A stretch of 33,796 bases of DNA from a virus. Position numbers and translations under genes: made by a program. The stretch is taken from the IMG/VR virus record IMGVR_UViG_3300045988_115677; one strand, given 5' to 3'. The notes below the pieces were generated by a model. The model saw only the letters and a program-made list of their open reading frames with translations. It was not told where the DNA came from and did no database searches. Positions 18,369 through 33,624 of the stretch are shown in pieces (position 1 is the stretch's first letter; every line of letters starts with the position of its first letter).

Positions 18369-18611
18369 TCAGAGGGCGTTGAGGGCGTCTGCGTCGAGGC
18401 GGCCCATGGTGGTCAGCCAGTCGCAAAGGTCGCTGTGCAGGCCTCCGTTGGGAGAGCCGTCGTAGGGGAGGCCCCACTGGTCGACGTCCTGGAAGGCCTC
18501 TTGGTCGCCGATGGTGAGGGTCCAGCGGGTGAGGTTGTTGTTGGCCGCGTCGGTGCGGGGGGCGGCGTCCAGCCGGGCGGCCTGCAGGGGGGAGGTGGTG
18601 TTGGCGGTCAT
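18369..18611 (-). CDS. Hypothetical protein (80 aa)
   Basis: ATG 18611 with RBS gaaaggaaa is preferred over the track start at 18635. First gene after the internal terminator. Confidence 0.5.
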   Translation of the reverse strand: MTANTTSPLQAARLDAAPRTDAANNNLTRWTLTIGDQEAFQDVDQWGLPYDGSPNGGLHSDLCDWLTTMGRLDADALNAL

Positions 18612-18735
18612 GTCCGTTTCCTTTCTGTCAGTCAACTGATCGGACGTAGGTGATGCTTCCTGCTGCGGGGGTGGGCGTCAACCTCGCGCGCCCGTGAGTT
18701 CGGTCACGCGAGTGTTTGGGGGGCGGGATTGTGCG

Positions 18736-18781
18736 AAAAACTCGGCTCCCTCGGACGGTGGAGATAGCGGAGGGAGTCGAG
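18736..18781 (-). terminator. Intrinsic terminator inside the leftward arm
   Basis: On the - strand: CTCGACTCCCTC, a 17-nt loop, GAGGGAGCCGAG (11 of 12 bp), immediately followed by TTTTT. It lies 80 nt after the metallophosphoesterase stop in a roughly 250-nt non-coding gap. Confidence 0.6.
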
Positions 18782-18859
18782 CTGTGAGACGCCGCGGGCC
18801 CGCACTCTAAGACCGCGTCGGCCTGTCGGGCGATTAACGACACGCGGCCGTGGCGGAAG

Positions 18860-20011: not shown

Positions 20012-20013
20012 GT

Positions 20014-20286
20014 TCACTCCCCCGCCTTGTAGTTGTTGACCCACTGGCGGAGATGGAACATGTTGAACCCTGCCCACGAGTCGTAGACGCGGCCGGTGTT
20101 CCTGTCGGCGACGTAGCAGACGGGGGCGGCGGCGTAGCCGTGCTCGTTGGCGAGTTCCTGCGCGGTCTTGTCGTCCTTGAATCGTGTTTCCATGTAGGGC
20201 GTGCCGTTCTTAGTGAGGTACCGCTTGGAGGAGCGGCACTGCTGGCAGCCAGGCAGGCTGGCAATGTAGATCTCATATGAGGCCAT
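20014..20286 (-). CDS. nrdH: NrdH-like glutaredoxin
   Basis: 90 aa. CQQC redox motif near the N-terminus. WAGFN resembles the NrdH WSGFR motif. RBS aaggag. Confidence 0.6.
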   Translation of the reverse strand: MASYEIYIASLPGCQQCRSSKRYLTKNGTPYMETRFKDDKTAQELANEHGYAAAPVCYVADRNTGRVYDSWAGFNMFHLRQWVNNYKAGE

Positions 20287-20324
20287 TGCTTGTTTCTCCT
20301 TGCTTATGGGGTGTGGGGTTGAGT

Positions 20325-20355
20325 GGCGGGGGCCGACAGTCGGCCGGCCCCCGCC
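20325..20355 (-). terminator. GC hairpin downstream of ssb (possible terminator or RNA stabiliser)
   Basis: 10-bp perfect stem ggcgggggcc / ggcccccgcc with an 11-nt loop, 10 nt after the SSB stop on the - strand. No U tract. Confidence 0.35.
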
Positions 20356-20365
20356 GTCGGATGCG

Positions 20366-20803
20366 TCAGAAGGGGCAGTCGCCGAAGTTGGACTGTCCGG
20401 CTAGCGGGTTCGCTGCGGCCTGGCCGAGCTGGCCGGGCTGGTGCTGGCTCCGAGCGTCTCCGTCCCGGTCGGCCTTGCGGATGTACCCGCAGAGGCGACA
20501 GTTACGCAGGTCATGGTCGATGCCTGCCCTCTCTCCGGTGTGCCACTCCCGGAGGGTCATCGTGCCGGTGACGGTGACCCGGTCGCCTTTCTTAAGGGTG
20601 TCTGCGATGTAGGTGTTCTCCTCACCGAACAGGGCGGCAGACACGTACAGCGGGGCGCCGTCGTCGTCCCACCTGCCGGTGGACTTGTCCTTCGCTCTGC
20701 GTGTAGCGCCGATGCGAAGGGAGATGATGGGGGTGCCGGACTGTGCGTAGTGGACCTCGGGGTCCTTGACGAGGGTGCCTGTGGTGGTGGTTTCAACAGC
20801 CAT
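20366..20803 (-). CDS. ssb: Single-stranded DNA-binding protein
   Basis: 145 aa. N-terminal OB-fold-like sequence (GTLVKDPEVHY...GDRVTVTGTM), a Gly/Gln-rich linker and a C-terminal tip FGDCPF resembling the SSB acidic D-x-P-F tail. Confidence 0.8.
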   Translation of the reverse strand: MAVETTTTGTLVKDPEVHYAQSGTPIISLRIGATRRAKDKSTGRWDDDGAPLYVSAALFGEENTYIADTLKKGDRVTVTGTMTLREWHTGERAGIDHDLRNCRLCGYIRKADRDGDARSQHQPGQLGQAAANPLAGQSNFGDCPF

Positions 20804-20817
20804 GGTGGGGTTCCTGT

Positions 20818-21048
20818 TCAGTTGATGAGGGCGGCTTTTATCTGGGCGTCCTGGAGTCGCGCGTAGTCGTACGCCTGGAAGTCCTCTACGGAGCCTGCGG
20901 GGACAACGGAGATGACCGCAGGCTGGCCGACCGACTCGACCGCGTTGTGGTCTGCGCGGTCGATGACGACGGGGATGTCTCCGTGCTTCTTGATGATGTC
21001 GGTGAGGTAGCCGATGAGCTCTTCGGCGGTGATTACCTGGGCGGTCAT
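20818..21048 (-). CDS. Hypothetical protein (76 aa), member of a recurrent domain family in this genome
   Basis: ATG 21048 overlaps the upstream stop (ATGA), with RBS gaaagga. Its N-terminal helix TAEELIGYLTDIIKKHGDIPV matches three other segments (see findings). Confidence 0.55.
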   Translation of the reverse strand: MTAQVITAEELIGYLTDIIKKHGDIPVVIDRADHNAVESVGQPAVISVVPAGSVEDFQAYDYARLQDAQIKAALIN

Positions 21049-21422
21049 TCTGCGGGGTCCTTTCTGTTGGCGTGGTTCAGGATGGTGACGAGGTCTGTGA
21101 CTGTCATGGTCACCCATTGGTCTCCGGCTTTGGCGTTGCCGTGGCGTTTGTGGATGACGATGCCGGTCAGGCCTCCGATGTTCGACGCTTCAGTATGCGC
21201 CTCTCGCATCCATTGAGGCAAGCCCATCTTAGTCACATTCTTGCATTCGACGGCGATCTGTCTGCCGCGGCAGGCGACCCCGTACAGGTCGCCCGAGTCG
21301 GCGGCGCCGGTCTTGACCTGCCGGTCGACATGACAGCCTTCGAGGCGGTCGTCGAGATGGTCGGCGATGAGCCGTTCGAATCTTGACCCTGCGGCTTTAG
21401 CGGATCTCAGGTTGCGTCCCAT
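21045..21422 (-). CDS. PD-(D/E)xK nuclease, Holliday-junction-resolvase-like (Hjc-type)
   Basis: 125 aa. Motifs GSRFERL, DSGDLYGV and IAVECKN in the order expected for Hjc-like resolvases. Confidence 0.6.
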   Translation of the reverse strand: MGRNLRSAKAAGSRFERLIADHLDDRLEGCHVDRQVKTGAADSGDLYGVACRGRQIAVECKNVTKMGLPQWMREAHTEASNIGGLTGIVIHKRHGNAKAGDQWVTMTVTDLVTILNHANRKDPAE

Positions 21423-21784
21423 GCTTCACGCGGCTCCTTCTTGACTTGGTCATGGATGGTGGCCAGCTGGTCCTGCAGGTATTCACGCATCTCGGTGGTG
21501 TCTTCCTGGCGGGAGGTCAGGTAGGCGGCGGCGGCTGCGAAGCGTGCCCGCAGGGAGTCGAGGCCGGCCTGCCAGGAGTCGCGGGCGGCGATGTTGCCGA
21601 CGTGTCTGCGCGCGTACCAGCAGGCCTTCGCCATATCTTCTCCGTACGTGGCCCCGTCCTTGATGCCGGCGCGGAGCGCGTACTTCAAGACGTTGCCGAT
21701 CAGGAATGTTTCCCGCTCGGTCAGGTTGATGACCTCGACAGGCCACTGCGTGTAGTGGGCGGGGTGACGCACGCTGTCGTTCAT
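21407..21784 (-). CDS. DUF3310-like protein
   Basis: 125 aa. N-terminal HPAHYTQWPVEVINL...GNVLKYALRAG matches the DUF3310 signature as I remember it. Confidence 0.55.
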   Translation of the reverse strand: MNDSVRHPAHYTQWPVEVINLTERETFLIGNVLKYALRAGIKDGATYGEDMAKACWYARRHVGNIAARDSWQAGLDSLRARFAAAAAYLTSRQEDTTEMREYLQDQLATIHDQVKKEPREAWDAT

Positions 21785-22455
21785 GAGATCACCGCCATGG
21801 GGGTGCCGTCAGTGTCGGCGCGGTACTGGTCCCACCCGCCGGCGTGGCCAGTCTTGACCGTGTTGAGTACGAGCAGGCCGTCCGCCTGTTCGAAGCCGAT
21901 GCCGCCGCCGGCGACCACGGCGACAGGGGTGTCGTTGCCGTACCGGAAAGCGGCGTCCTGCAACTGGCCCATGAGGCGGCCGATGGTGAGGGTGCCGGCT
22001 TCCTGGGTGGCGTAGTCGCGGACTGTGGCTCCGGTGCCGGTGGATCCGAAGCCTCCCTGGCCGCGGGGCGTGTCGTCTTCTACGGCGCCGACCTCCATGT
22101 GGACGGGCGGCTGGGGAAGGATGATCAGCTGGCAGATCCGCTCTCCGGCAGCGATGAGGGCCGGTTCGGCGAGTGCGGTGACAAGGAGCTTGATGTTGCC
22201 TCGATACCCGGAGTCGATGATTCCAACGCCGTTAGGGATGGTGAGTCCTTTCTTGCCGGCAGAGGAACGGAGCGTCAGCTGCCCGTAGTAGCCGTCGGGG
22301 ATGGCGACCCGGATGCCCAGGTCGATCGTGTACATGGCGCCTGAGCGGACCAGGCAGCCCTGCCCTTCGGGGACGTGCAGGTCAAGGCCGGCGTCCGTGT
22401 CGTGGGCCCGCGCGGGGTCCTGCACGTTCATTGTCTTCTGGACGGTGACTTTCAT
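21781..22455 (-). CDS. dut: dUTPase fused to an ~80-aa C-terminal extra domain
   Basis: dUTPase motifs AGLDL, RSS, GIIDSGYRG and RGQGGFGSTG lie within aa 1-140. Residues about 145-224 have no dUTPase counterpart. Confidence 0.8.
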   Translation of the reverse strand: MKVTVQKTMNVQDPARAHDTDAGLDLHVPEGQGCLVRSGAMYTIDLGIRVAIPDGYYGQLTLRSSAGKKGLTIPNGVGIIDSGYRGNIKLLVTALAEPALIAAGERICQLIILPQPPVHMEVGAVEDDTPRGQGGFGSTGTGATVRDYATQEAGTLTIGRLMGQLQDAAFRYGNDTPVAVVAGGGIGFEQADGLLVLNTVKTGHAGGWDQYRADTDGTPMAVIS

Positions 22456-22469
22456 GTTGGTGGTTCCTT

Positions 22470-22838
22470 TCAGTGCTTAGCCCATGGGGAGCGGTCTCGG
22501 CCTCTCGTGAGGTCGTGTGGCTCGGAGTGGTAGGAGTCGATTTCGTTTTCCTCCCAGGCGAGAGGCGAGTGGCCGCCTGCGATGACGGCGGTTCTGTGTG
22601 CGGCTGTAGAGTTTTTGTTTGGGCTGATCGGCTGGCATTGGAGCCGCTGCCACGCGCAGGCCATGCGGAGTCTGGCCTCGGGGTTGACGTACTCGCCTGC
22701 GCGGCCTTTGGTGACCATGCGGGGAGGGACGCCTGCCGCTCGGGCGATGCGGTGTTCGTCGTAGCCGATCCACATGAGCGACAGGATCCGCCGCTGCAGC
22801 CCGATCGGGGTGACGAGGGTGACGGGCACTGCTGTCAT
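22470..22838 (-). CDS. Helix-turn-helix DNA-binding protein
   Basis: 122 aa. LQRRILSLMWIGYDEHRIARAAGV looks like an HTH. ATGA overlap with the recT stop. Confidence 0.5.
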   Translation of the reverse strand: MTAVPVTLVTPIGLQRRILSLMWIGYDEHRIARAAGVPPRMVTKGRAGEYVNPEARLRMACAWQRLQCQPISPNKNSTAAHRTAVIAGGHSPLAWEENEIDSYHSEPHDLTRGRDRSPWAKH

Positions 22839-23680
22839 CGGTTGGTCTCCGGGTTCCTGCCGGCCTGCCAGGTCGAGAGCACAGCCTCCAGGGAGTCGGG
22901 GTCATCCATGCTGGCGCCTCCTTCTTGGGCTCGTTTCCACACGTCGCCCGGGCTGCCGCCGGTTTCCTTGCAGTAGTCCATGAGCATGGTGCGGGTCATG
23001 TTGCGGCGAGCTTCCTGCTCGGAGCCGGGCTCCGGGTTCGGTGCGGGGACCGTGGTGGGGCTGTCGGGGATGATCCCCGTTTCGTGCTTCCGTTCGGTGG
23101 GGGGCGGCACGTCCTTGGGGCCGGGGGCGCTCTCGGCGATTCTGCGGGCTTTTTCTTGGGCGTCTCCTCGTTCGGTTGGGGTGGTTTCCTCGGTGTGTCC
23201 ACGCAGGTTCTGAGGTTCGCTCGTGAGCTCTTCTGCGGTGTACACGTTCCCGGCGAGGGCGTCCGATGCGCCCTGACGGCACACCTCGGTGATGGCGCGG
23301 GCTCGGAGCATCTGTCGGGGGTACTGCGTCCACGGGCCGCGGTTGCCCCACAGCCCTGCCTCGCGGGCCTTCTTTTCGTCCCAGGTGACGGTGAACTTGT
23401 AGTCGGGGTCGTCGGCGCGGATGATGCTAGCGGTGACACTGTTGCCGTCTTCGTGGATGCGGAGCTTGTGGCCGGCCCGGCGGACGATCGCCCCCATAAG
23501 GTCTGCGGACATGGTCATCTTGCCGCGGGCTACGACCATGGATTGCATGACCTGGGTGTAGGGGACGCCGAGGGCGTCGCCGATGTCCATCGCCCAGATA
23601 ATGTCGGCCGGCTTGCCTCGGTACTCGGCGGGGATGAGGGATGACTGGGAGACGATCTTCGCGTGTTCGATGCGGTCCAT
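22835..23680 (-). CDS. recT: RecT-family single-strand annealing recombinase
   Basis: Start ATG 23680 (MDRIEHAK...) with RBS gaaaggaa. RecT-like core ...GPWTQYPRQMLRARAITEVCRQ.... The longer track ORF (to 24097) overlaps two better genes. Confidence 0.7.
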   Translation of the reverse strand: MDRIEHAKIVSQSSLIPAEYRGKPADIIWAMDIGDALGVPYTQVMQSMVVARGKMTMSADLMGAIVRRAGHKLRIHEDGNSVTASIIRADDPDYKFTVTWDEKKAREAGLWGNRGPWTQYPRQMLRARAITEVCRQGASDALAGNVYTAEELTSEPQNLRGHTEETTPTERGDAQEKARRIAESAPGPKDVPPPTERKHETGIIPDSPTTVPAPNPEPGSEQEARRNMTRTMLMDYCKETGGSPGDVWKRAQEGGASMDDPDSLEAVLSTWQAGRNPETNR

Positions 23681-23985
23681 TAGAGGGTTCCTTTCATGAC
23701 TGTTCCGAGGAGGGCGGCGGCTACGTCGGCGGGGTGTGAGTCGCACTGGTAGGGGACGTCGGCGCGGGAGCGTCCCGCTTGGATGGTGACCCCGGCTTCG
23801 CCGACGCGGGCGGAGAGCAGGTCTTGCTGGTCGGTGAAGATGAATAGGCGGGCCGGGTCTGCGTCTACGAGCGGTTCGTCGACGATGAACTGCGGCCCGG
23901 GGTGGTGGCGGAGGCAGCATTCGGCGATGAGCCTGGCCATGGGGGCTCTGTCTTGTCTGGGGGCGAATCGGCCGATCATGACCAT
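23680..23985 (-). CDS. Hypothetical protein (99-101 aa)
   Basis: Packed in the operon. The alternative ATG 23979 gives an ATGA overlap with the upstream stop. Confidence 0.45.
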   Translation of the reverse strand: MVMIGRFAPRQDRAPMARLIAECCLRHHPGPQFIVDEPLVDADPARLFIFTDQQDLLSARVGEAGVTIQAGRSRADVPYQCDSHPADVAAALLGTVMKGTL

Positions 23986-24260
23986 GCCTCGCGCGCGTCG
24001 TTAAGGGCCCGGCGGATGGCGTTGTTGATGGCGTCCCGGGCGCCGTCCGGGTCGCAGGCGTAGCGGCTGCCGCCGGCGTCGAGGGCGTACAGCCCATCGT
24101 CGGTGACTGACGCGATCACGCTATCCCTCTCGGTGTGGGCTTCGATGTAGGGAGAGCCGTGGGTGGTGCGGTGGAGCGCGGCGTATTCCGAGACGGCGAG
24201 GTGGTCGCGGATGGCGGCCAGGAGAGGAAGGAGGAGGCGGGACTGCATGAGCGGCGACAT
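23976..24260 (-). CDS. Hypothetical protein (94 aa)
   Basis: RBS gaaaggga upstream. In the operon. Confidence 0.45.
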   Translation of the reverse strand: MSPLMQSRLLLPLLAAIRDHLAVSEYAALHRTTHGSPYIEAHTERDSVIASVTDDGLYALDAGGSRYACDPDGARDAINNAIRRALNDAREAWS

Positions 24261-24272
24261 GGGTGGTCCCTT

Positions 24273-24827
24273 TCAGTTGGTGGGCTTGATGGCGGTGAGG
24301 ATGTCGGCGATGGCTTCGCGGGCCTGGGATAGGTTGCGCTTAGAGGCCGGCCAGCGATGACTGTGGGTGATCGCCCAGGCGGAGAAGTCCGAGTTCCGGC
24401 CTTTCTCGATGTGGATGGCACCGGGGCCGTAGCCGACCTCTGCGACTTCGGTGCCGTCCGGGAGCGCCCCGGTGATGGCGGGGTCGCCGCCGGCGAGGAG
24501 GTCGGAGAGCTGCTCGAGCAGGTCGGCTGGGGTCATCTCTCGCGCCTCTCGTTCGCGGAGATCCCCTGACAGTGGCGACGTGTGGGCGTAGTCCAGCATG
24601 GTGGCTAGCTGCTCGCGCATGGCGTTTGTGTCGTCGGCCGCCCAGGCGCCACCGCCCGGCTGCGAGTACCAGACGTACATGCCGTCATAGTCGTAGACGT
24701 TGGTCTTCCTGGCGGTGCCCTCGACGGCGATCATTCGGTCGCCGAAGTCGTCGGACTTGGCGATGGTCGCGGACTCGCCTTCGCGGAGGAGCGGCTGAAG
24801 GGCGGTGAGGATGTCTTCGAGTGTCAT
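24273..24827 (-). CDS. Hypothetical protein (184 aa) with internal tandem duplication of a ~90-aa module
   Basis: ATG 24827 (MTLEDILTALQPLL...) is preferred over the track start at 24917. The second half restarts with MTPADLLEQLSDLL.... Confidence 0.5.
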   Translation of the reverse strand: MTLEDILTALQPLLREGESATIAKSDDFGDRMIAVEGTARKTNVYDYDGMYVWYSQPGGGAWAADDTNAMREQLATMLDYAHTSPLSGDLREREAREMTPADLLEQLSDLLAGGDPAITGALPDGTEVAEVGYGPGAIHIEKGRNSDFSAWAITHSHRWPASKRNLSQAREAIADILTAIKPTN

Positions 24828-24837
24828 GTCGGGGCTT

Positions 24838-25008
24838 TCAGCTGTGGCGGACGTTGACTGTCCGGGTCTTCCCGGTGGAGGGGTCTGTGTAGTGGGCGCG
24901 TCTCCAGTCGGCGGCATCGATTCGCGCGACCCTGCGCCGGTAGGACGCCGCGTACTTTTTGGCTGACCGTGCTCGTTTGGAGGGGGTGGTGTTCTCGGGG
25001 ATGTTCAT
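24838..25008 (-). CDS. Small basic protein (56 aa), absent from the ORF track
   Basis: My translation is MNIPENTTPSKRARSAKKYAASYRRRVARIDAADWRRAHYTDPSTGKTRTVNVRHS. ATGA overlap with the stop of gene 25005..25298. It fills an otherwise empty 170-nt gap. Confidence 0.45.
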   Translation of the reverse strand: MNIPENTTPSKRARSAKKYAASYRRRVARIDAADWRRAHYTDPSTGKTRTVNVRHS

Positions 25009-25298
25009 GGCAGTGGGAGGTTTCTGAGGGTCTGTTCGGCGTCGGCTTCCGTGGTGGCGTGATCGAACGAGGGGGCCTGGGGTGCGGGGCGGTTCGAGGA
25101 TGCGACCACGACGTGGAGGCTGTCATCGATGACTGCGACCCCGCGGCTCGGGATGATCACTGACCATCGGATGGTGTCTCCGAAGGGGGAGCGGACGGTT
25201 ACTGCTTTGGCTTCGGCTGCCCAGCCTCGCCGGCCGATGTCGCGGGCGATGTTGTTGGCGAGTTCCTGCGCGGTGGGCAGCTTCTTCCGGCGGAACAT
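25005..25298 (-). CDS. Hypothetical protein (97 aa)
   Basis: The start shares one nucleotide with the upstream stop (TAATG). In the operon. Confidence 0.45.
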   Translation of the reverse strand: MFRRKKLPTAQELANNIARDIGRRGWAAEAKAVTVRSPFGDTIRWSVIIPSRGVAVIDDSLHVVVASSNRPAPQAPSFDHATTEADAEQTLRNLPLP

Positions 25299-25591
25299 TA
25301 GTCGTTCTCCAGGCAGAGGAGTGTGCAGACGATACGGCCGGCGTCTTCTGGGCGGGTGGGGTATGTGACGTGCGTGCCGGTGGCTGACGTGTAGGCGATC
25401 CTGTCTTGGTAGACGGCGACTTTGGCTGTGCAGTCCGTCTGGCCGGTTTCGGCGATGGCTACGACTGCGGCTTCCGGGTGGCCGGCGGCGCCGACGTGGG
25501 TGGCTACTGCCCCGTAGCCGATGGTGGTGAGGCGGATGTAGTTGGCGATCTGGGTGGCGACGCGGTTCTGGGTGGGGGGTGACAGGCGCAT
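25298..25591 (-). CDS. Hypothetical protein (97 aa)
   Basis: RBS gaaagga upstream. In the operon. Confidence 0.45.
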   Translation of the reverse strand: MRLSPPTQNRVATQIANYIRLTTIGYGAVATHVGAAGHPEAAVVAIAETGQTDCTAKVAVYQDRIAYTSATGTHVTYPTRPEDAGRIVCTLLCLEND

Positions 25592-25626
25592 GTTGTGTCC
25601 TTTCTGTGGGGTCTTCTGGGGGGCTG

Positions 25627-25887
25627 TCAGGCGCCGGCCCGGCTCTGGTACTGGGGGTGGGGCGCGAGGGCGTCAGCGTGGCGGAGGATGGCCTTCCTGC
25701 GGTTGCTGGACCGGGTCGCTTTGATGGCGACCGGCAGGCCGATGACCAGCGCCGGGATGGTGGCCGGCCCGACCCCGCCGGCGAGGAGGCCGGCGACCGC
25801 GCCGAGGACGGCGACGATTGAGAGGGTCGCGATCCAGGCGATCAGGGTGGTGGCTGCGCGGCTGGGGAGCTGGGCGGTGGTGTTCAT
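25627..25887 (-). CDS. Membrane protein (86 aa, two TM segments), first gene of the leftward arm
   Basis: Strong RBS aaggagg. Hydrophobic segments TLIAWIATLSIVAVLGAVAGLLAG and IPALVIGLPVAI. Confidence 0.55.
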   Translation of the reverse strand: MNTTAQLPSRAATTLIAWIATLSIVAVLGAVAGLLAGGVGPATIPALVIGLPVAIKATRSSNRRKAILRHADALAPHPQYQSRAGA

Positions 25888-26120: not shown

Positions 26121-26170
26121 GGGAGAGATATCTAGGTAGTAGATAGTAGATACCTGTGGATATGTGGATA
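26121..26170. promoter_or_regulatory. AT-rich element with AGTAGAT tandem repeat (candidate DNA unwinding element)
   Basis: About 40 percent GC by hand count, against roughly two-thirds for the genome. Contains the palindrome agatatct and then ggtAGTAGATAGTAGATAcc, abutting two DnaA-box-like sites. Confidence 0.4.
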
Positions 26171-26400
26171 ACCCCATCTTTCGTTGCTATGGTGCGGCAG
26201 CCCTGTCCACAGGGGGTTGTGGGTAAAGTTGTATGCACATGTGAATTGCTTGTATGCACAAGTACTTTTCCACAGGTTATCCACAACCAATCCACAGGGT
26301 TGTCCACACGGTTATCCACAGGGGTGACGAGGATGGCCTGGGACCGAAGTCCCCGCACTGGGAGGAGTTATCCACAGGGTGTGAGCTAACCTGTGGACAC
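26155..26400. promoter_or_regulatory. Cluster of ~10 DnaA-box-like 9-mers (candidate origin of replication or DnaA-binding array)
   Basis: Minus orientation: 26155-63 ATATCCACA, 26163-71 TTATCCACA, 26392-400 GTGTCCACA. Plus orientation: 26203-11 CTGTCCACA, 26266-74 TTTTCCACA, 26277-85 TTATCCACA, 26288-96 CAATCCACA, 26300-08 TTGTCCACA, 26312-20 TTATCCACA, 26368-76 TTATCCACA. Confidence 0.6.
26229..26260 (+). repeat. Direct repeat TTGTATGCACA x2 at 21-bp spacing in AT-rich DNA
   Basis: Copies at 26229-26239 and 26250-26260 are identical. The palindrome cacatgtg lies between them. About 38 percent GC locally. Confidence 0.8.
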
Positions 26401-26427
26401 CAACCACCACCACCGTCGGAGGACCAC

Positions 26428-26640
26428 ATGACTCGCACCCTTTCGTTCCTCGTTGGCATCTCTGCCGCCCTTGCCACCCTCTGGTCTCTGGCTCAGCTGT
26501 GGATCGCTCTCACTGTCGGAGAAGCGAACGTGATCTCTCTGGTCGGCTGGGGGTTGGCCTCAGCGATCCTGTGGGCCCTTCTGCGGCCTATCAGGTGGGC
26601 CAGAGCCCACGGCCTGCACCCTGGGTTCCATCGCCGCTGA
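26428..26640 (+). CDS. Small membrane protein (70 aa, two TM segments), first rightward gene
   Basis: ATG 26428 with RBS ggagga, in frame with track ORF 26254..26640 (whose 5' part lies over the DnaA-box array). A strong terminator follows. Confidence 0.55.
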   Translation: MTRTLSFLVGISAALATLWSLAQLWIALTVGEANVISLVGWGLASAILWALLRPIRWARAHGLHPGFHRR

Positions 26641-26663
26641 GGAGCTCTGAGCGCCTCTCGGGC

Positions 26664-26703
26664 GGGGGTCTCGACACGCCGGTGTCGGGGCCCCCTTCTT
26701 TGT
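26664..26703 (+). terminator. Intrinsic terminator
   Basis: 14-bp stem gggggtctcgacac / gtgtcggggccccc (two G-U pairs), loop gccg, followed by ttctttgt. Starts 24 nt after the stop at 26640. Confidence 0.75.
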
Positions 26704-26874
26704 GCCCTCTAACCGGAACGTTTCCGTCCTGTTCTGTTCCTCTTCGCTCGAGGGGGTGCCCCGCGATGCGGGAGGGGGAGTGGTGTTAGGGCCTAGTTGC
26801 AGGGGGGCGACTTCGTACCCAGCCGTTCTTTGTTCTGTCAAACCATGCGGTACAACCGGAACGCATGTGTCCCA

Positions 26875-26903
26875 CTTACACTAGAACGTCAGTCGGTTAA
26901 CGT
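26875..26903 (+). promoter_or_regulatory. Candidate rightward promoter upstream of the T-depleted region
   Basis: CTTACA (26875-80), 17 nt, TAACGT (26898-903), matching TAnnnT. Lies in locally AT-rich DNA with the tandem TTAACGT-T-TTAACGT. Weak match only. Confidence 0.2.
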
Positions 26904-27423
26904 TTTAACGTGTGAGTTCCCCCACCGAATTCGGGGGCCTAGGAGCCGCCACCGTGTACAGTGGGGGGGAAAGGGGGGGCGGCGAAGAGCCCGACCGTCC
27001 AGGTCGGCCCGCCCAACGGGAACGACACAGCCAGCAACAGAACAACCCCCCGACAGAGACACAACCCACGGAGCCCGCCACCACGGAACAGCCCAACAAA
27101 CACGCAGCCGAACCTGAACAGCCAACAGGGAACAGCAACCCGCCCCCCAGGTTAAGAACAACCCGACCAGGACACAGCCAGCAAGACAAGCCACCCACAA
27201 GACCAGCCCACCCCCTCAGAAAAGAACTGCAACCCACAGGACAGCCACCAACAAACAGTAACCACCACCCAACAGAGGGACGGCCCGAACCAGGAACCGC
27301 AGCACACCAAGCGGGTGGGGCGGGAGTTAAGGAGGGGTCTAAGGGGAGCAGGCCCCCACACGCCACAGCCCCCACCACCCCGGAACCGGGACCCACCAAC
27401 CAAACACCGCCACCCACCAGACA

Positions 27424-27446
27424 CCCCAACCCCAAACCCCAACCCC
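27424..27446 (-). repeat. G-quadruplex motif GGGGTTGGGGTTTGGGGTTGGGG (C4A2-type repeats on the + strand)
   Basis: Four C4 tracts on the + strand at 27424-27, 27430-33, 27437-40 and 27443-46, separated by AA, AAA and AA. Confidence 0.8.
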
Positions 27447-27530
27447 AACCAGAAACCAAACACCAAAGCCAGGACCCCCACCACCCTCCAGCCGCCTCAC
27501 CACCCACACCCCACCAGGTACCCTGCACAC

Positions 27531-27986
27531 ATGCCATGGGCCACATCCAACCGACGTCAACGCTTGCCAACAAACTGGAACAAACTCAGGAAGCAAGTCC
27601 TCGCAAAAGCAAACTACAAATGCGCAGGCCTCGACCCAGCCACCACCCCACCACCCACCAGTGGAGAGGCACAAGGGAGGGCACACCGGTGGCACCACCC
27701 GGCATGCACCATGCGCGCAACCGACGTCGACCACATCATCGCCGGCGACAACCACGAACTAAGTAATCTCCAAGCCCTGTCGCACGCCTGCCACACAGCC
27801 AAGACCACACAAGAGAACGCCGCAGCCAAGGCGCGCATACGCGCCACAGCCACACGCGAACAGCCGCCACACCCAAGCGCGCGCGCAACACAAACAAACA
27901 AAAAAGAAAAACAAAACAAAACAAAAGCAAAAGCAAGCAAAAGCAAAACCCAAGCCGAAACGACGCGACGCGAAACTTGGAACTGA
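27531..27986 (+). CDS. HNH endonuclease (packaging-associated type) with Lys-rich C-terminal tail
   Basis: HNH core DVDHIIAGDNHELSNLQALSHACHTAKT. N-terminal RRQRLPTNWNKLRKQVLAKANYKC is typical of phage HNH proteins. The start is uncertain, because the frame is open back to GTG 27315. Confidence 0.65.
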   Translation: MPWATSNRRQRLPTNWNKLRKQVLAKANYKCAGLDPATTPPPTSGEAQGRAHRWHHPACTMRATDVDHIIAGDNHELSNLQALSHACHTAKTTQENAAAKARIRATATREQPPHPSARATQTNKKEKQNKTKAKASKSKTQAETTRRETWN

Positions 27987-28170
27987 AAAAAAACCGCGCC
28001 GAAAAAAACGAAGCCACCCCCTGGCACCGACTCCCCTCCCCCCACACACGAAAGACCGGGGGAGATAGCAATCACGGAGTGGGATGCCCGGAACGACAGC
28101 GTTTGGGGTGACGGCGGCCACTGTGGGCGCGTGCGTGGCGGAACTCGGACGGCCCCGTAACCTTGTTGTA

Positions 28171-28201: not shown

Positions 28202-29623
28202 ATGGGCGTTAGCTCCATTGCTGCATCCCAGATGCAGTACTGGTGTCAGGCCGGGCCGGGGAAGCCGCAGGGTGGGGCCTACTCGGTCGGCTACTCGCAG
28301 CCTGACCGTCTATTCTCGTACCGTGACAGCGACGAGGATGGTTGGCTGCAGTGCGACTCGAACATGGACTGCTCGTCCGCGGTGCGGGGGGCGATCAACT
28401 ACGGCCTCCACAAGGCGTGGGGGTACGGCTGGGGTGACGGCCGGCTGTTGCCTGAGTCGACGTGGACGGGGTCGATCCGTTCTGAGTTGACGTCTCGCGG
28501 CTGGTATGAGGTTCCGTGGTCGGATGCGTCCTTGTACCCGGATGGTGGTTTCCAGGACGGCGACGTGGTCCTGTCGGAGGCGGCTTCCGGCGGGGTCGGC
28601 CATGTTGCGATGGTTGTCCCGGATGGGCTGGCTGAGGCGTGGATTGCTGAGGACGGCACGATCGATGGGTATGTGGGCGACCAGACTGGCTCTGAGACCA
28701 GGGTTGGCGACTACGCGACCCACGTGTACACGCGCGGCGGCAGGTGGACGCATTGTCTGCGCCTGCCTGAGGGCGGTGACAGCCCTTCTGGCGGCCGTTC
28801 TTCGTCGTCCGGGTACTCGGGTAGGACGATCGCGAATATGGGCGCCCTCGTGGCCGCTGCGGACGCTGTGGGGCTGCCCCGGTGGGTGGCTCTTGGTTTG
28901 GCTGAGCAGGAGTCGAACGGCGAGAACGTGTTCGGCCATGACGCTGGCGGCGCCTATCAGGGCGGCGGTGAGGTCACGGAGGCGAAGTTCCGTGATTTCT
29001 ACGCTCAGATCAGCGCTGGGGCTACGTCGAACGGTGTCGGCCCGACCCAAGTGACGTACCCGGGCTATTTTTTCAATGACCCGGATCGCGCCTGGTGGGA
29101 CCCGCAGGCTTCGTCGGAGGTCGGCTTCGGGATTTTGGCCGGCTACTTGGGCGGCGACTACTCGTGGGACTCCCTGTGTCGGGCTGGGTCTACGTACAAC
29201 TGCGGTAACCCGAACGACCGTTACGAAACGTACGGGCAGTCTTTCGCGTCGCTGGCTTGGGCGTGGAAGGATCAGCCGCTCGGCGACTATGCCGGCGGCG
29301 GTGTGTCATCTACCGATGAGGAGCTGGAAATGTCTGCTGCTGTTGATCTTCTGACTGAGATCCGCGATTCGCTGCGCGCCGGCAAGGAGGGCGACCACTA
29401 CGCCGGCGACATGGCTTGGTACTCCGGGGCGATCCGCGATGAGTTGCGCTCCCTGAACTCGAAGGTGCAGGTCATCTCTGACGCTGTCACTCCGGGCATC
29501 GCGGGCGTTAAGTTCGACGGGGACCTGTACAACGCGGTTAAGGAGACTCGGAAGTCCCTCGCTGTCATCGAGCGGCGCTTGAATGCCCAGCAGGGCGGCC
29601 AGGACGTCGGCGGTGACTCATGA
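28202..29623 (+). CDS. Endolysin: N-terminal NlpC/P60- or CHAP-like cysteine peptidase plus central lytic-transglycosylase-like domain
   Basis: RBS gaaggagagg. Candidate catalytic Cys in NMDCSSAV and His in GVGHVAMV. SLT-like LGLAEQESNGE...GVGPTQV. The C-terminal ~110 aa are helical and contain no cell-wall-binding motif that I recognise. Confidence 0.7.
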   Translation: MGVSSIAASQMQYWCQAGPGKPQGGAYSVGYSQPDRLFSYRDSDEDGWLQCDSNMDCSSAVRGAINYGLHKAWGYGWGDGRLLPESTWTGSIRSELTSRGWYEVPWSDASLYPDGGFQDGDVVLSEAASGGVGHVAMVVPDGLAEAWIAEDGTIDGYVGDQTGSETRVGDYATHVYTRGGRWTHCLRLPEGGDSPSGGRSSSSGYSGRTIANMGALVAAADAVGLPRWVALGLAEQESNGENVFGHDAGGAYQGGGEVTEAKFRDFYAQISAGATSNGVGPTQVTYPGYFFNDPDRAWWDPQASSEVGFGILAGYLGGDYSWDSLCRAGSTYNCGNPNDRYETYGQSFASLAWAWKDQPLGDYAGGGVSSTDEELEMSAAVDLLTEIRDSLRAGKEGDHYAGDMAWYSGAIRDELRSLNSKVQVISDAVTPGIAGVKFDGDLYNAVKETRKSLAVIERRLNAQQGGQDVGGDS

Positions 29624-29748
29624 TCGTCCTTTTCGCTGTCGCTGCCGCCATCCTGGGCGCCTACTGGGGCGGCCTGTGCGAGGGCGTTGAGAACGGTTAC
29701 CCATGGGAACGAATGAACAAGGAGAAGAAGAATGACTCTGACGGCTGA
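29620..29748 (+). CDS. Small single-TM protein (42 aa) in the lysis cassette, absent from the ORF track
   Basis: ATGA overlap with the endolysin stop. My translation is MIVLFAVAAAILGAYWGGLCEGVENGYPWERMNKEKKNDSDG, a TM segment plus a charged tail. It overlaps the holin start. Confidence 0.45.
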   Translation: MIVLFAVAAAILGAYWGGLCEGVENGYPWERMNKEKKNDSDG

Positions 29749-30082
29749 GCAGTCCGCGACCCTGACGGCGGTCGCTGCGATCGTGTGGCCTCTGATCCAG
29801 GCGGCCCTGGACAAGCCGTACTGGACGCCTTCCCGTCGGCGGATGATCGCCCTGGCTGCGATTGTCGTGATCGCGGTCGGCACTTGGTTTGTGGGCGCCT
29901 ACCCGGCGACCGCCGAGGCGGCCGCCACTCAGGTCTTGTCTGTTGCCGGCCTCGTCCTCGGCGCTTACAACGTCCTGAAGTCCGTGAAGATCAACGGGAT
30001 CAGCGTCCTGGATTGGGCCGGTATTGTCACTCCTGGTGGTGTCGACCTGCGGAAGTCGGAGGGTGGGGCCCATAAGGCCTGA
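29732..30082 (+). CDS. Holin-like membrane protein (116 aa, ~3 TM segments)
   Basis: RBS aaggag. Hydrophobic segments AVAAIVWPLIQAAL, MIALAAIVVIAVGTWFVGAY and VLSVAGLVLGAYNVL. Adjacent to the endolysin gene. Confidence 0.6.
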   Translation: MTLTAEQSATLTAVAAIVWPLIQAALDKPYWTPSRRRMIALAAIVVIAVGTWFVGAYPATAEAAATQVLSVAGLVLGAYNVLKSVKINGISVLDWAGIVTPGGVDLRKSEGGAHKA

Positions 30083-30102
30083 CCTGCCCCCGACCTGCGG
30101 TC

Positions 30103-30139
30103 CGGCGGCCGTCTCGCATATCCCGCGGGGCGGCCGCCG
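30103..30139 (+). terminator. Hairpin after the holin gene (possible terminator; also a candidate packaging-site region)
   Basis: Perfect 9-bp inverted repeat cggcggccg / cggccgccg with a 19-nt loop, followed by ttggtttcc. Lies in the 107-nt gap before terS. Confidence 0.35.
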
Positions 30140-30189
30140 TTGGTTTCCGGCGGTATGATTGGGGCACGCTACGACCGAGAGGGGCTGAG

Positions 30190-30561
30190 ATGCCGCAGAA
30201 ACCGCCGCCGCGGCTGAGTAAGTCCGCCCGCCGCATGTGGGATGACATCACGGCAAGGTGGGAGCTTCGCCCGGACGAGGTTCGCCTGCTGGAGGACGCC
30301 TGCCGGGAAGCGACGATCCTCGACAAGATCGAGCGGGAGCTTGCGGGCGCCGATTACGTGATGCCCGGGTCGCAGAAGCAGCTGCGCGCCCACCCGCTTC
30401 TGTCGGAGGTGCGCCAGCATCGCGTGGCGATGGCGCAGCTGCTGTCGAAGCTGAACCTTCCGGACGAGGAGGCGGACGCCAGGGCGCAGGCCTCTAGGTC
30501 TGAACATGCGTCTATCGCGGCGGCCGGCAGGTGGGGTCTGACTCGTGGCCAGGCCTCGTGA
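30190..30561 (+). CDS. Terminase small subunit (P27-family-like)
   Basis: 123 aa. The sequence ...LSKSARRMWDDITARWELRPDEVRLLEDACREATILD... is typical of P27-family small terminases. Immediately upstream of terL. Confidence 0.7.
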   Translation: MPQKPPPRLSKSARRMWDDITARWELRPDEVRLLEDACREATILDKIERELAGADYVMPGSQKQLRAHPLLSEVRQHRVAMAQLLSKLNLPDEEADARAQASRSEHASIAAAGRWGLTRGQAS

Positions 30562-32296
30562 GCGGAAAGCCGCCAGCGGAGACGACCCGCGCCTCCTCGC
30601 GGAGATCCGCGAGTATTACGAGGGGCGCCTGAAGTCTCGTCCGGCGGTGCTGCCGGGGGCTGGTGGGCCGTTCCCGGCGGTTGCGTACGGCCCGGTGTGG
30701 GCCGTGAAGGACGGCGCCTGGCTGCAGCCTGAGCACACCGTCGGCTGGGACGTGGCCTGTTGGACGTCGGCGCACCTTGCTGGGCCTGGCGGCGGCCCCT
30801 TCTTGTTCACGGACGAGCAGCTGCGCTTCATGCTTTGGTATTATGCGACAGACTCGGCTGGGAGGTTCCTGTCGCCCACGGTGGTTCTGCAACGGTGCAA
30901 GGGGTGGGGCAAGGATCCGCTGGCTGGCGTTATCGCCCTCGCGGCGCTCTGCGGCCCGTCCGTCCCATTCGTGGGGGGGGACGGCGTGGTGCGCGGACGC
31001 CGCGAGGAGTCACCCTGGATTCGCCTCCTGGCGGTTTCCCAACAGCAGACAGAGAACACGATGGGGGCGATCCGCGCCCTGGCGCCCCCGGACGTTCGTG
31101 AGGACCTTGCGATCCGGGTGGTAACGACACTGGTTCGCCCGACTGACGGGAGTGCGGGGTTCATCACGGCGATCACGTCGAATCCTGACGCGGCCGAAGG
31201 GGCGCGCGCCACCCTGACCGTATGCAACGAGACACAGAACTGGACGCGGTCGAACTCTGGCATGGCGATGATGGGTGTCGTCCGCGGTGACGCAGCAAAG
31301 TCGCCGCCGGAACGGCAGGCCCGGGTTTTGCACATCTGCAACGCTGCTAGGGTCGGTGTCGAGTCGGTTGGGTTGTCTGTCCGTGAAGGCTGGGAGGAGC
31401 ACGGCGGGAGGGGCGCCGGCCTCATGTACGACTCGTTGGAGGCACCCCCCGACGCGCCGCTGACTGCGGAGGCCGCACCTGAAGTGGTTGAGTCTGTTCG
31501 TGGCGACGCGTCCTGGCTGACACCGGACCGTATCGTCCAGGACATCATGGATCCGTCTACGCCGCCGTCTGAGTCGCGCAGGAAGTGGTACAACCAGGTG
31601 GTCGCGTCCGAGGATGCGTGGCTGACCCGCGAGGAGTGGGACTCCTGTCTTGATAAGGAACTGCCTGCGCTGGACCCCGGAGACGAGGTTGCAGTGTTCT
31701 TCGATGGCGGTAAATCGGACGACTCGACCGCCTGCGTGGCTGTCCGCATCAGTGACGGCGCTCCGTTCGTGGTCGGCGTGTGGCAGCGGCCGCCTGACGC
31801 CCGCGCCCATAACTGGGTTGTCGATCGGGCTGCGGTCGATAAGCGCGTCCGTGACTTCTACGAGCACCATAATGTGGTTGCCCTGTGGGCGGACCCGTCT
31901 CACGCCGTCGAGGATGAGAGCATGGAGCAGTTCTGGGACTCGGTCGTGGACGGCTGGCATCGCGACTATGGTCGCCGGCTGCGGCTGAAGGCCTCTCAGG
32001 GGCACTCCGTGAAGTGGGACATGTCCTCGCCGGCGAACCAGAAAGCATTCGTGCACGCCGTCCAGGTCGCGACCACCGACATAGTCGAGCATGCGTTCGT
32101 CCATGACGGCGACGCGAGGCTACGCGCCCACGTCCTCCATGCTGTCCGCTACCCGACGCGGTTCGGCATGTCGATCTCGAAGGACGGCCGAGAGTCACGC
32201 AAGAAGATCGACTTGGCTGTCTGCATGATCGGCGGTAGGATGATCCGTAACATATGGCTGAATAGCCGCCGCCGGAGCAGAGGATCGATATGGTGA
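30545..32296 (+). CDS. Terminase large subunit
   Basis: 583 aa. GTG start overlaps the end of terS. Walker-A-like CKGWGKD. Precedes portal. Confidence 0.8.
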   Translation: MARPRERKAASGDDPRLLAEIREYYEGRLKSRPAVLPGAGGPFPAVAYGPVWAVKDGAWLQPEHTVGWDVACWTSAHLAGPGGGPFLFTDEQLRFMLWYYATDSAGRFLSPTVVLQRCKGWGKDPLAGVIALAALCGPSVPFVGGDGVVRGRREESPWIRLLAVSQQQTENTMGAIRALAPPDVREDLAIRVVTTLVRPTDGSAGFITAITSNPDAAEGARATLTVCNETQNWTRSNSGMAMMGVVRGDAAKSPPERQARVLHICNAARVGVESVGLSVREGWEEHGGRGAGLMYDSLEAPPDAPLTAEAAPEVVESVRGDASWLTPDRIVQDIMDPSTPPSESRRKWYNQVVASEDAWLTREEWDSCLDKELPALDPGDEVAVFFDGGKSDDSTACVAVRISDGAPFVVGVWQRPPDARAHNWVVDRAAVDKRVRDFYEHHNVVALWADPSHAVEDESMEQFWDSVVDGWHRDYGRRLRLKASQGHSVKWDMSSPANQKAFVHAVQVATTDIVEHAFVHDGDARLRAHVLHAVRYPTRFGMSISKDGRESRKKIDLAVCMIGGRMIRNIWLNSRRRSRGSIW

Positions 32297-33624
32297 ACGG
32301 ACCGTGGGATGACATTGCGGCTCGCCGTGACGAGGCGAGGGCGCTTGCCGCCCAGCGTCGCGAAGAGATTGCCCCCGGGGCGTCTACGCGGACCGCGGCC
32401 AGCGGTCCCCTGTATGGGGTTGATTCAGACAGGGCTGACGCCACGAAACGACGCCTGAAGGCGTTGTCGCTCGGCCCTACTCTGGGGCTACTGTTGGACA
32501 CGCTGGCTCGGCAGATAGTCGCTGACGGTATCTCTTCCGACCGGGACGATCAGGGGTCCGCTAGGCTGTGGGGGCCGTGGGAGGCGTCGGGCATGCCGTC
32601 TAGGCAGACGGCCCTGTGGCGCGAAGCTCTCATTGATGGCGCCGCTTATGCTGCCGTTCTGCCGTCGAACGGCCCGTCCGTGCTGCCGCTGCCGGCCTCT
32701 AGGGTCGCCTGCGATTGGGGTGGCGCGGAGGCAAACGAATGGCCCGTTGCGGCTGTTGTGTTGCGCGGCGACGGCGCCCCGTGGCGTTACCTGACCGCCG
32801 CCGAGGAGGTGGACTGTAAGACTGGCGCCGTCCTCTGGTCTGGAGCTCTGCAGCATTGCCCTGTCGTGCGTGTCGCCCCTTATCAAGCGCTGGACGGCGA
32901 ATGTGAATCCCTGGTGGATAGGCTGCGTCTCCCCGCCCGCCGTTACATCAAGACCGTGCACGACCGCCTCCTCGTCCAGCATCACAACTCGTGGCGTGTT
33001 CGTACTGCGACAGGCCTTGCCGATCCGGGATCCCCCGAGGAAGCGGAGCGACAGAAAGCCCTCCTGGAGCACGGGGATGTGCTGACCGGGGGCGAGGGCG
33101 TGCAGTTCGGGTCGCTGCCTGAAACGAACCTGCAGTCGTTGCTTGACGCCGAGAAGGCTGACCTGGGGACGCTGGCTGCGCTCGCGTCGGTGCCGTCCTG
33201 GGCGCTGTCTGGGGCGCAGCTAGTCAACCTGAGCGCGGACGCTCTCGCTGAAGCCAAGGCAGCCGAGCGCGCTCACCTGCAGGCGCTCACGCGCGCTTTT
33301 GGGCGCCCCGTGTGCAACCTCGTTCGCCTGTGCGCTGCCGTTGACGGACGCCGCGACGACTCCGAAGACACCACGCTCTCTGTCGACTGGCGGGACACTG
33401 AGGCCCGCTCCTTGTCGCAGGCGGCTGACGCTCTCGGGAAGCTGTCGCAGACGCTGGGCGTGCCCGCCGCGCTGCTGTGGGACCGCATCCCCGGCGTGTC
33501 GCCGTCCGAAGCGGCCGGCTGGAGGGAGTACGCGGACGCGCACCCTGACGCGCTCACCTCGTACGCACAGGCTCTCGCCGGCGCTGACAATCCTGGCAAG
33601 GTCGCAGCCTTGGAGGAGGAGTGA
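32290..33624 (+). CDS. Portal protein
   Basis: 444 aa. ATG overlaps the terL stop. Lies between the terminase and MuF-like genes. Confidence 0.75.
   Translation: MVNGPWDDIAARRDEARALAAQRREEIAPGASTRTAASGPLYGVDSDRADATKRRLKALSLGPTLGLLLDTLARQIVADGISSDRDDQGSARLWGPWEASGMPSRQTALWREALIDGAAYAAVLPSNGPSVLPLPASRVACDWGGAEANEWPVAAVVLRGDGAPWRYLTAAEEVDCKTGAVLWSGALQHCPVVRVAPYQALDGECESLVDRLRLPARRYIKTVHDRLLVQHHNSWRVRTATGLADPGSPEEAERQKALLEHGDVLTGGEGVQFGSLPETNLQSLLDAEKADLGTLAALASVPSWALSGAQLVNLSADALAEAKAAERAHLQALTRAFGRPVCNLVRLCAAVDGRRDDSEDTTLSVDWRDTEARSLSQAADALGKLSQTLGVPAALLWDRIPGVSPSEAAGWREYADAHPDALTSYAQALAGADNPGKVAALEEE

Follow-up and report, generated by a model that had tools for sequence, protein, structure and literature searches.

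Two elements that meet at the locus described here have precedents. C-rich leaders that load the termination factor Rho are known, as in the Rho utilization (rut) regions and Rho-dependent attenuators of the lambda tR1 type (rutA/rutB; PMC12360218, PMC6144790), in which C far exceeds G and the RNA is untranslated and unstructured. HNH endonuclease genes adjacent to the cohesive-end site (cos) are known as well; the gene of the HK97 gp74 type lies left of cos, with TerS, TerL and the portal gene beyond. The IMG/VR virus record IMGVR_UViG_3300045988_115677, a stretch of 33,796 nucleotides that was analysed as a whole and is called the window in the following, carries a segment of about 1.1 kb (26985-28060, the block) that is nearly free of T on the + strand, comprises a long upstream tract together with an HNH gene and ends at the presumed cos. 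The layout of the window is that of a cos-type siphophage genome of ~34 kb in circular permutation, with the block as the right-terminal segment next to the presumed cos. As far as our searches show, a kilobase-scale, nearly T-free domain that is apparently maintained by selection and engulfs a coding gene is new, as are the end of this domain at cos and a weaker signature of the same kind across all non-late genes. Megablast and blastn searches against 50,697 phage records retrieved no relative of the block and matched only the 40-95 nt of the HNH catalytic core, and a literature search found no earlier description of such a block. The relatives used for comparison were metagenomic assembly contigs from IMG/VR and ENA (labelled L010, L013, L028 etc.), grouped by TerL identity into a 95 % and a 67 % group.

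A recount gave exactly the T numbers that the original prediction had obtained by hand, 12 in 27001-27480 (2.5 %) and 47 in 27001-28020 (4.6 %), and both T-free runs listed there, 27341-27486 (146 nt) and 27839-27976 (138 nt). Together with 27005-27114 (110 nt) these are the three longest T-free runs of the window; the longest one outside the block measures 56 nt. The + strand of the block consists of A 34.6, C 40.4, G 20.3 and T 4.7 %, compared with A 16.7, C 29.9, G 35.1 and T 18.4 % for the whole window. This shift is almost purely transitional (G to A, T to C), with 55 % purines in the block versus 52 %. A sliding-window analysis revealed the T depletion to be exceptional for this genome, with the block holding its extremes: in windows of 200 nt the T fraction has a mean of 0.184 (standard deviation 0.043) and a minimum of 0.015 at 27005, while the maxima of A (0.475) and C (0.55) and the minimum of G (0.11) all lie within the block. 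The AT skew reaches +0.85 and +0.69 in 27001-28000 versus -0.48 to +0.36 in the rest of the window, and the C/G ratio rises to 6.1 in 100-nt windows, the highest of the genome. According to a cumulative T walk, the boundaries are located near 26840-26920 and 28100, with the onset of T depletion at ~26918. A C plus A content of 85-90 % had been estimated for the core; this holds for the T-free cores only (86 % in 27341-27486, with C 53 %, G 14 % and T 0 %, and 83 % in 27839-27976), the whole block having 75 %. The overlapping open reading frames (ORFs) on both strands were present as listed, and the warning against trusting them proved justified, as none is conserved among the relatives. The T-poor block is not an assembly artefact, because it recurs in dozens of independent metagenomic contigs.

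The comparison of homologous regions showed a composition preserved without the sequence. In the 67 % TerL group, the tract upstream of the HNH gene could not be aligned to that of the window except for its last ~35 nt, yet it has the same composition. For the core C-rich tract, the composition but not the sequence is kept in both the 95 % and the 67 % TerL groups. Among singleton substitutions in the block, 102 led from A or C to G or T and 34 in the opposite direction (first alignment set, 5-9 sequences); a recount of the upstream tract on 11 distinct sequences yielded 47 versus 9. Late genes of the same genomes were balanced (135 versus 131). C-to-T, normally the commonest change, was ~5-fold rarer per site than A-to-G, and the polymorphic columns comprised 11 C/T and 76 A/G columns. 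Nearly every remaining T lies in an invariant motif. Recent changes counteract the bias at ~3-5:1, and new T is the rarest of them, which points to selection and not to mutation pressure: the alignments argue that the T-poor composition is held by purifying selection, strongest against T, and is not a mutational equilibrium.

A strand-specific constraint at the nucleic-acid level, rather than a property of a protein, had been suspected from the letters alone. The non-coding tract and the synonymous sites of the recoded HNH gene bear this out. Codons for Lys, Gln and Glu end in A at a frequency of 0.14 in late genes, 0.31 in early genes and 0.80 in the HNH gene, and the T-ending share of the two-fold pyrimidine-ending codons is 0.24, 0.09 and 0.04, respectively. 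Fourfold degenerate sites have A 0.05, C 0.38, G 0.39 and T 0.18 in the late genes, A 0.12, C 0.62, G 0.20 and T 0.06 in the early genes, and A 0.47, G 0.12 and T 0.02 in the HNH gene. The preference of the HNH gene for codons ending in A or C was seen at all third positions (A 38, C 43, G 16, T 3 %), compared with ~A 5, C 38, G 42, T 15 % in the late genes and A 8-16, G 28-34, T 10-14 % in HNH orthologs of other actinophages. Its amino-acid usage is shifted to K, N, T, Q, P and H. In comparison to the orthologs, the protein gained a P/T-rich insert of 20 amino acids and a K/Q/N/T C-terminal tail of 32 amino acids, the latter encoded by an A-rich (CAAAA)n tract at ~27880-27960 with little codon-position periodicity. 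In a weaker form, this shift from G to A and from T to C at synonymous sites was detected in every non-late gene on either DNA strand, and in the relative L028, which has early genes in both orientations, it tracks gene orientation. The bias therefore follows the sense of the transcript and not the DNA strand, as the early genes on the - strand share it, and an RNA-level cause is favoured over a DNA-end cause. Relatives of the 67 % group have further T-free runs, 80-100 nt long, both upstream of and within the rightward rep/DnaB early operon, 3-3.7 kb from cos.

The expectation of an essentially unstructured + strand RNA agreed with folding calculations, in which this RNA was by far the least structured of the genome. 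The 11 least-structured of 562 windows of 120 nt all fall in 27001-27960, with a mean folding energy of -19.6 for the region versus -45.8 kcal/mol. For RNA of the - strand, the least-structured windows were those of the early genes and their leader.

Alignments of the ~550-600 nt before the HNH gene indicate a non-coding sequence without a conserved reading frame, as had been assumed for about 550 nt. Among 11 distinct relatives with 83-87 % identity, 21 gap events were counted, with lengths of 1 nt (16 events), 2 nt (2 events), 4, 10 and 11 nt. The tract is considered non-coding because none of these lengths is a multiple of three and because the stops change frame: conserved TAA islands differ between genomes in their frame relative to the HNH start codon, and no frame is open in all. 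A single start codon (GTG at 27315) is present in 519 nt versus ~25 ATG, GTG and TTG expected. The distance from the invariant hairpin GAGCCCGACCGTCCAGGTCGGCCC to the ATG varies little around a mode of 544 nt. Within tract A (Table 1), T is confined to the invariant islands AACCTG, CAGGTTGAGAACAA and AGAACTGCA. The hexamer ACAGCC occurs 9 times in 27012-28058 versus 1.8 expected (z = 5.7); GAACAGC was found 4 times in the same range and CCAGGT 3 times, always at invariant positions. The core bases of AACCTG (27109) and CAGGTT (27146), which together make an inverted repeat, are invariant. No Rfam family was matched at E <= 1 over 25.4-28.4 kb. Tandem-repeat expansion was discarded as the source of the tract, since it accounts for no more than the (ACCCCA)4.5 and (CAAAA)n arrays, which are small parts, and a derivation of tract A from the early regions of relatives was abandoned after blastn and tblastx gave compositional noise only. 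The suspected tendency of the complementary strand to form G-quadruplexes turned out to be weak: one canonical motif lies on the - strand (27424-27446) and one on the + strand just upstream of the block (26963-26979), without clustering. The tract GTGGGGGGGAAAGGGGGGGCGG is one of only two canonical G-quadruplex motifs on the + strand; contig L085 starts ~20 nt upstream of it.

The HNH gene itself is, judged from its conservation, a genuine packaging nuclease gene under purifying selection on the reading frame. The Pfam match to PF01844 is weak (16.9 bits versus a cutoff of 21.4), the gene is 38-39 % identical to actinophage HNH genes (tblastn), and the motif residues DHI..GD(N/D)H..NLQ..C..CH..K are kept in the protein alignment. 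Nine sequences showed zero indels, and the variable columns are distributed as 32/29/59 over the three codon positions. The gene is the direct left-hand neighbour of cos; TerS, TerL and portal follow on the far side, after one extra gene pair. A hexamer T-A-N3-T in front of the gene was kept in 26 of 26 distinct relatives (as TACCCT, TACACT, TAGGAT or TACCAT) within a context of ~3 % T, spaced from the ATG by 6 nt in 24 and by 7 nt in 2 of them. None of the 26 distinct HNH starts has a Shine-Dalgarno sequence before the ATG. This conservation is strong evidence for a -10 element and for a leaderless HNH mRNA that would start at the A of the ATG; leaderless mRNAs are common in Actinobacteria. 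To call the upstream tract the leader of the HNH gene is probably too simple, given the invariant TANNNT at 6-7 nt from the ATG and the missing Shine-Dalgarno sequence.

Table 1. Location of the T-poor block, its parts and the surrounding features in the window
Feature	Position	Strand	Remarks
G-rich hairpin-forming 5' segment	26919-27011	+	
G7-A3-G7 tract GTGGGGGGGAAAGGGGGGGCGG	26964-26984	+	directly upstream of the C/A-rich block; conserved in relatives
Invariant hairpin GAGCCCGACCGTCCAGGTCGGCCC	26987-27010	+	putative RNA structure, without covariation
CA-rich non-coding tract A	27012-27321	+	
G-rich Shine-Dalgarno-like island GGGAGTTAAGGAGGGGTCTAAGGGGA	27322-27347	+	conserved; no start codon downstream
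Core C-rich tract	27348-27518	+	(CCCCAA)-like repeats
-10-like hexamer TACCCT (TANNNT)	27519-27524	+	6 nt before HNH ATG (TACCCT-N6-ATG, 27519-27533)
HNH endonuclease gene	27531-27986	+	151 codons; phrog_333, E = 2.8e-27
CA-rich trailer with C-runs (CCCCCTGGCACCGACTCCCCTCCCCCCACACAC)	27987-28058 (72 nt)	+	sequence conserved across clades
Inferred cos / physical genome end	28059-28081		GGGGAGATAGCA/ATCAC...
Further genes	28202-33624	+	endolysin-like 28202, TerS 30190, TerL 30545, portal 32290
Late genes	657-17017	+	GC3-guided ORFs, profiles
Early genes	17650-25887	-	exonuclease, SSB, RecT-like, dUTPase-like, kinase-like
DnaA-trio-like TAGTAGATAGTAGATA	26128-26150		precedes the DnaA boxes
DnaA-box cluster	26150-26400	both orientations	at least 10 boxes, TTATCCACA, TTGTCCACA and variants
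Accessory insertion module	26376-27346 (970 bp)	+	blastn coordinates
Promoter/operator-like block P1	26823-26925	+	14-sequence alignment

The position of the block at the genome end follows from the contigs. More than 15 independent contigs start inside the 22-nt span equivalent to 28059-28081, and in several of them Nextera adapter remnants or fold-back duplications lie precisely at this point. Contig L067 terminates at ...GGAGGGAGCA in the same span. The motif G(G/A)G(A/G)TAGCAATC is common to the 95 % and 67 % TerL groups. At this motif, A+C drops in every lineage examined from ~75 % to ~47 % (95 % TerL relatives) or ~50-58 % (67 % group), and T climbs from ~5 % to ~15 %. Contigs also break elsewhere, namely at the equivalents of a C-run tract at ~27490 and of the (CAAAA)n tract at ~27880-27905 (L009, L019, L024, L029, L030, L064, L068, L084 and L086). 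Judged from these sequence ends, the assignment of cos is strong but not proven. The hot-spot of contig starts near 27490 was also considered as the boundary of a direct terminal repeat; assembly dropout at C-run and A-run tracts explains it more simply. The conserved trailer between the HNH gene and cos may be a cos-flanking recognition element.

The layout of the genome was obtained from ORF calling guided by the G+C content at third codon positions (GC3) and from profile searches. No polymerase or helicase was found among the genes called in the window phage; the relative L028 carries rep and DnaB genes upstream. Between the early genes and the block lies a divergent control region with the DnaA boxes. 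This is a probable phage origin that would use the host DnaA, and the block adjoins it. The region also contains a direct repeat of TTGTATGCACA, two copies with a 10-nt spacer at 26229-26265, of which one is conserved in the 67 % group; the repeat may be an operator or promoter element inside the origin. TerL is at most 45 % identical to that of Bifidobacterium phage Bbif-1 and Microbacterium phage Footloose, and the phage is without a close cultured relative. Its host is probably an oral, high-GC actinobacterium. The first gene past cos (28202-29623) codes for 473 amino acids with an N-terminal endolysin-like domain (PF25309), and the product is 54 % identical over 160 amino acids to lysins of two saliva-derived viruses; upstream of TerS is an unusual position for a lysin. 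Genes for tRNA or tmRNA were not found. A second, far milder T-poor stretch (642-901, less than 6 % T in 100-nt windows) coincides with the late gene 657-1229, whose second codon positions are 47 % C. Its T-poverty is presumably an amino-acid effect of an Ala/Pro/Thr-rich protein.

A part of the block is accessory. Only a subset of the close relatives has the insertion module; L010, L013 and every locus of the 67 % TerL group lack it, and where it is lacking (L013, L028) the C-rich tract follows the last DnaA box immediately. The module holds a small transmembrane ORF (26431-26640), a strong intrinsic terminator (26664-26700, terminator scan), the promoter/operator-like block P1, the 5' hairpins and the CA-rich block over its first ~360 nt. 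The transmembrane ORF has a homolog in the 67 % group that is located upstream of the origin instead. P1 is the best-conserved non-coding sequence of the region. It comprises TTGACC, TTACAC-N16-TAACGT and (T/A)AACGTGTGAGTT, of which the first base varies and the rest is invariant, and is a putative regulated promoter. The motif AACCGGAACG, restricted to genomes with the module, occurs at 26711-26720 and, inside P1, at 26854-26863, 143-144 nt apart. It is a candidate regulator binding site; genome-wide, the 8-mer of this type is not significantly enriched (5 observed, 2.6 expected). The first copy sits in the near-palindrome CGGAACGTTTCCG, and a third, CCGGAACG, follows just past cos (28088).

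As a possible function, tentatively put forward here, the tract would shield the HNH promoter, cos and the late operon from upstream transcription, acting as a factor-dependent attenuator or insulator. The selected molecule would be the RNA of the + strand. A nearly U-free transcript would offer virtually no AUG, GUG or UUG, contain few stop codons, lack U-tract terminators and form hardly any base pairs, with C two to six times as frequent as G. The upstream tract would stay ribosome-free and single-stranded and thus be exposed to Rho and RNase E. Transcripts from the origin region, the membrane ORF or P1 (~26.9 kb) would be terminated or degraded before they reach the HNH promoter, cos and the late operon, and only antiterminated transcription would pass. 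The HNH gene would be transcribed from its own -10 element into a leaderless mRNA, whose CA-rich, structure-free body would suit leaderless translation. Rho favours naked C-rich RNA (reviewed in PMC12360218). Mycobacterial RNase E, the mycobacteria being the only actinobacteria examined for this preference, cuts 5' of C in C-rich single-stranded RNA with a weak dependence on the surrounding bases (PMC10641625). The properties of rut-like sequences, a C-rich and G-poor composition over at least ~80 nt, absence of structure and absence of a conserved frame, were all present in the tract. A Rho entry or decoy site, or a CA-type effect on translation, as envisaged in the original prediction, is plausible on the basis of the sequence; the leader of the late operon also considered there is hypothetical. 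Mycobacterial Rho has been reported to be insensitive to bicyclomycin.

Several points weigh against an attenuator or insulator read by Rho. Rho loading does not need the exclusion of U, yet U is the base most strongly excluded, and G is tolerated at ~20 %. With Rho as the reader, the C-rich early mRNAs should be liabilities. The C bias at third positions of the early genes could in part be ordinary actinobacterial codon usage. RNAalifold found no convincing covariation in three alignments (one compensatory pair) and no conserved RNA structure, and no antiterminator was identified. Both promoters, P1 and the -10 element of the HNH gene, are predictions; a scan with the sigma-70 consensus, which is too strict for actinobacterial promoters, returned none. 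The host is putative, and so are the Rho and RNase E that would act on the RNA. Finally, the domain ends within ~40 nt of cos in every lineage, which a function of the DNA end explains as well.

Such a function, unlikely but deserving attention, would let the terminal ~1 kb serve the packaging or injection end or the free end made by the cos cut. It is the DNA packaged last and, by analogy with lambda-type siphophages, would be injected first. Resection from 5' to 3' by the phage exonuclease could leave a C/A-rich, T-free, 3'-ended strand as a good substrate for RecT, and the phage encodes exonuclease, SSB and RecT but neither polymerase nor helicase. Alternatively, a duplex with one T-free and one A-free strand could evade A/T-containing restriction sites, T-specific ADP-ribosylation of single-stranded DNA of the DarT type or the loading of nucleases, in line with T being specifically the most strongly excluded base; restriction is lethal anywhere in the genome, though, so that a refuge of 1 kb has no obvious value. 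The step in composition at the cos motif in all lineages suits a DNA-end role, but since the HNH gene always lies beside cos, this boundary coincides with the point at which the HNH unit ends. Footloose, with its defined physical ends, has a milder A/C-rich segment (T 8 %) in its last ~640 nt, of which the last 50 nt are unbiased. Early genes on the opposite DNA strand share the sense-strand bias, T-free runs lie 3-3.7 kb from cos in relatives, and the left genome end has no mirror-image domain, which all speak against the DNA end as the cause.

It is also conceivable, if improbable, that the exclusion of T (or U) is itself the device and provides a kilobase of blank nucleic acid for a function not described so far. 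Such a blank would be devoid of start and stop codons, of -10 elements on either strand, of U-tract terminators, of A/T-containing palindromes and of pairing, and the HNH gene would have been forced to recode to live inside it. Candidate roles are a decoy or sponge that saturates the C-directed RNA surveillance of the host (Rho and actinobacterial RNase E) and a T-free shield against thymine- or adenine-directed defence at the end probably injected first.

Less probable still is a protection of RNA combined with a tuning of translation. Messages free of U and poor in G would evade U-dependent endoribonucleases, lack pause and terminator signals and stay unstructured, while rare A-ending codons would hold the potentially toxic HNH protein at a low level. 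Many mRNA interferases of toxin-antitoxin systems act on U-containing sites, and U is the most strongly excluded base. The extension of the bias to all early mRNAs and their 5' untranslated regions and the apparently leaderless HNH mRNA, with 80 % of its Lys, Gln and Glu codons ending in A, agree with such a role. It leaves unexplained, however, the T-free ~550 nt ahead of the HNH promoter that encode nothing, and C-rich single-stranded RNA, the preferred substrate of mycobacterial RNase E, should be labile rather than protected.

A mutational strand asymmetry as in vertebrate mitochondria, with deamination (C to T, A to G) of a single-stranded - strand near the origin or the DNA end, is very unlikely. 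The almost purely transitional shift with unchanged purine content and the adjoining DnaA-box origin would be in accordance with it, but recent substitutions run 3-5:1 against the bias, T survives only in invariant motifs, and the bias tracks gene orientation in the window and in L028. Known asymmetries of transcription and replication, moreover, make the coding or leading strand G/T-rich, the opposite of the situation here. A skew from bidirectional replication around the DnaA-box origin was rejected, because its polarity does not fit and because in L028 the bias goes with the orientation of the genes. Hardly any credence remains for the Pro/Thr/Gln-rich disordered protein offered as an alternative in the original prediction, here extended to a Pro/Thr/Gln/His-rich protein or an N-terminal extension of the HNH protein (ORFs 26912-27766 or 27315-27986), which has the long ORFs in several frames and the nearly constant length of the upstream tract in its favour but is contradicted by sixteen 1-nt and two 2-nt indels among close relatives without a shared open frame, by TAA islands that switch frame relative to the ATG, by GTG at 27315 as the sole start codon in 519 nt and by the lack of any Pfam or PHROG match.

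If the RNA-level reading is true, the block is an unusually clean natural case of selection on base composition itself, in which an essential packaging nuclease yields to composition in its codon preference and even in its amino-acid content. The block would then provide a handle on Rho, RNase E and leaderless translation in phages of high-GC Actinobacteria, which are poorly studied. For annotation, regions open in six frames should not be recorded as genes in such phages, and low-complexity tracts of this kind break short-read metagenomic assemblies. The cos, the DnaA-box origin and the HNH promoter of a clade of uncultured oral phages could be placed from sequence alone.

Compared with described systems, the block resembles rut regions also in its position between transcription units, after an intrinsic terminator. 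It is ~5-10 times longer, nearly free of U, whereas rut regions use C and U, and it covers a coding gene; a dependence on Rho is hypothetical. The HNH protein shares the conserved motif residues and the gene position of the HK97 gp74 type but differs in its A/C-driven codons and amino acids, its two low-complexity additions and an apparently leaderless expression, and an endolysin-like gene separates cos from TerS. The vertebrate mitochondrial L-strand has the same A/C-rich, G-poor sense bias, which likewise alters amino-acid usage; there the bias arises by mutation, as the displaced strand is deaminated, and does not exclude T, while the block appears to be selected and spans only 1 kb. In E. 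coli, CA multimers reportedly act as downstream enhancers for leaderless as well as leadered translation (Martin-Farmer and Janssen 1999). The CA-rich, unstructured sequence downstream of the probably leaderless HNH start is comparable, but those multimers were short and synthetic, and the 550 nt upstream of the start would remain unaccounted for. Long C-rich tracts of unclear function are likewise present in viruses as the poly(C) tracts in the 5' untranslated regions of cardioviruses and aphthoviruses, and CCCCAACCCCAAACCCCAACCCCAA near the DNA end is reminiscent of the telomeric C-strand (CCCCAA)n. These are, however, features of RNA viruses and of eukaryotic chromosomes; the block has only ~4 repeat units, and with the 3' end of its C/A strand at the terminus its polarity is the reverse of that of telomeres. 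The RNA-based prophage origins of cluster A mycobacteriophages (PMC7157519) are comparable as non-coding regions of ~400-500 nt in actinophages; they are transcribed and associated with replication. The origin of Alma has no strand asymmetry and no sequence similarity to the block, and an RNA-primed origin of the Alma type was dismissed as a model for this lack of asymmetry.

Among other phages, the HNH gene of Bbif-1 and the right end of Microbacterium phage SuMoo showed no comparable bias, and a prophage of Gordonia malaquae has a milder one around its HNH gene. The extreme form of the bias is specific to the clade of the window phage. The nearest counterpart in culture is the cos phage Footloose (L078), with a TerL 44 % identical to that of the window phage: at the right end of its genome, an A/C-rich segment with ~8 % T (38800-39680 of the record) covers the HNH gene and a small downstream gene, and Footloose could therefore serve as an experimental model.

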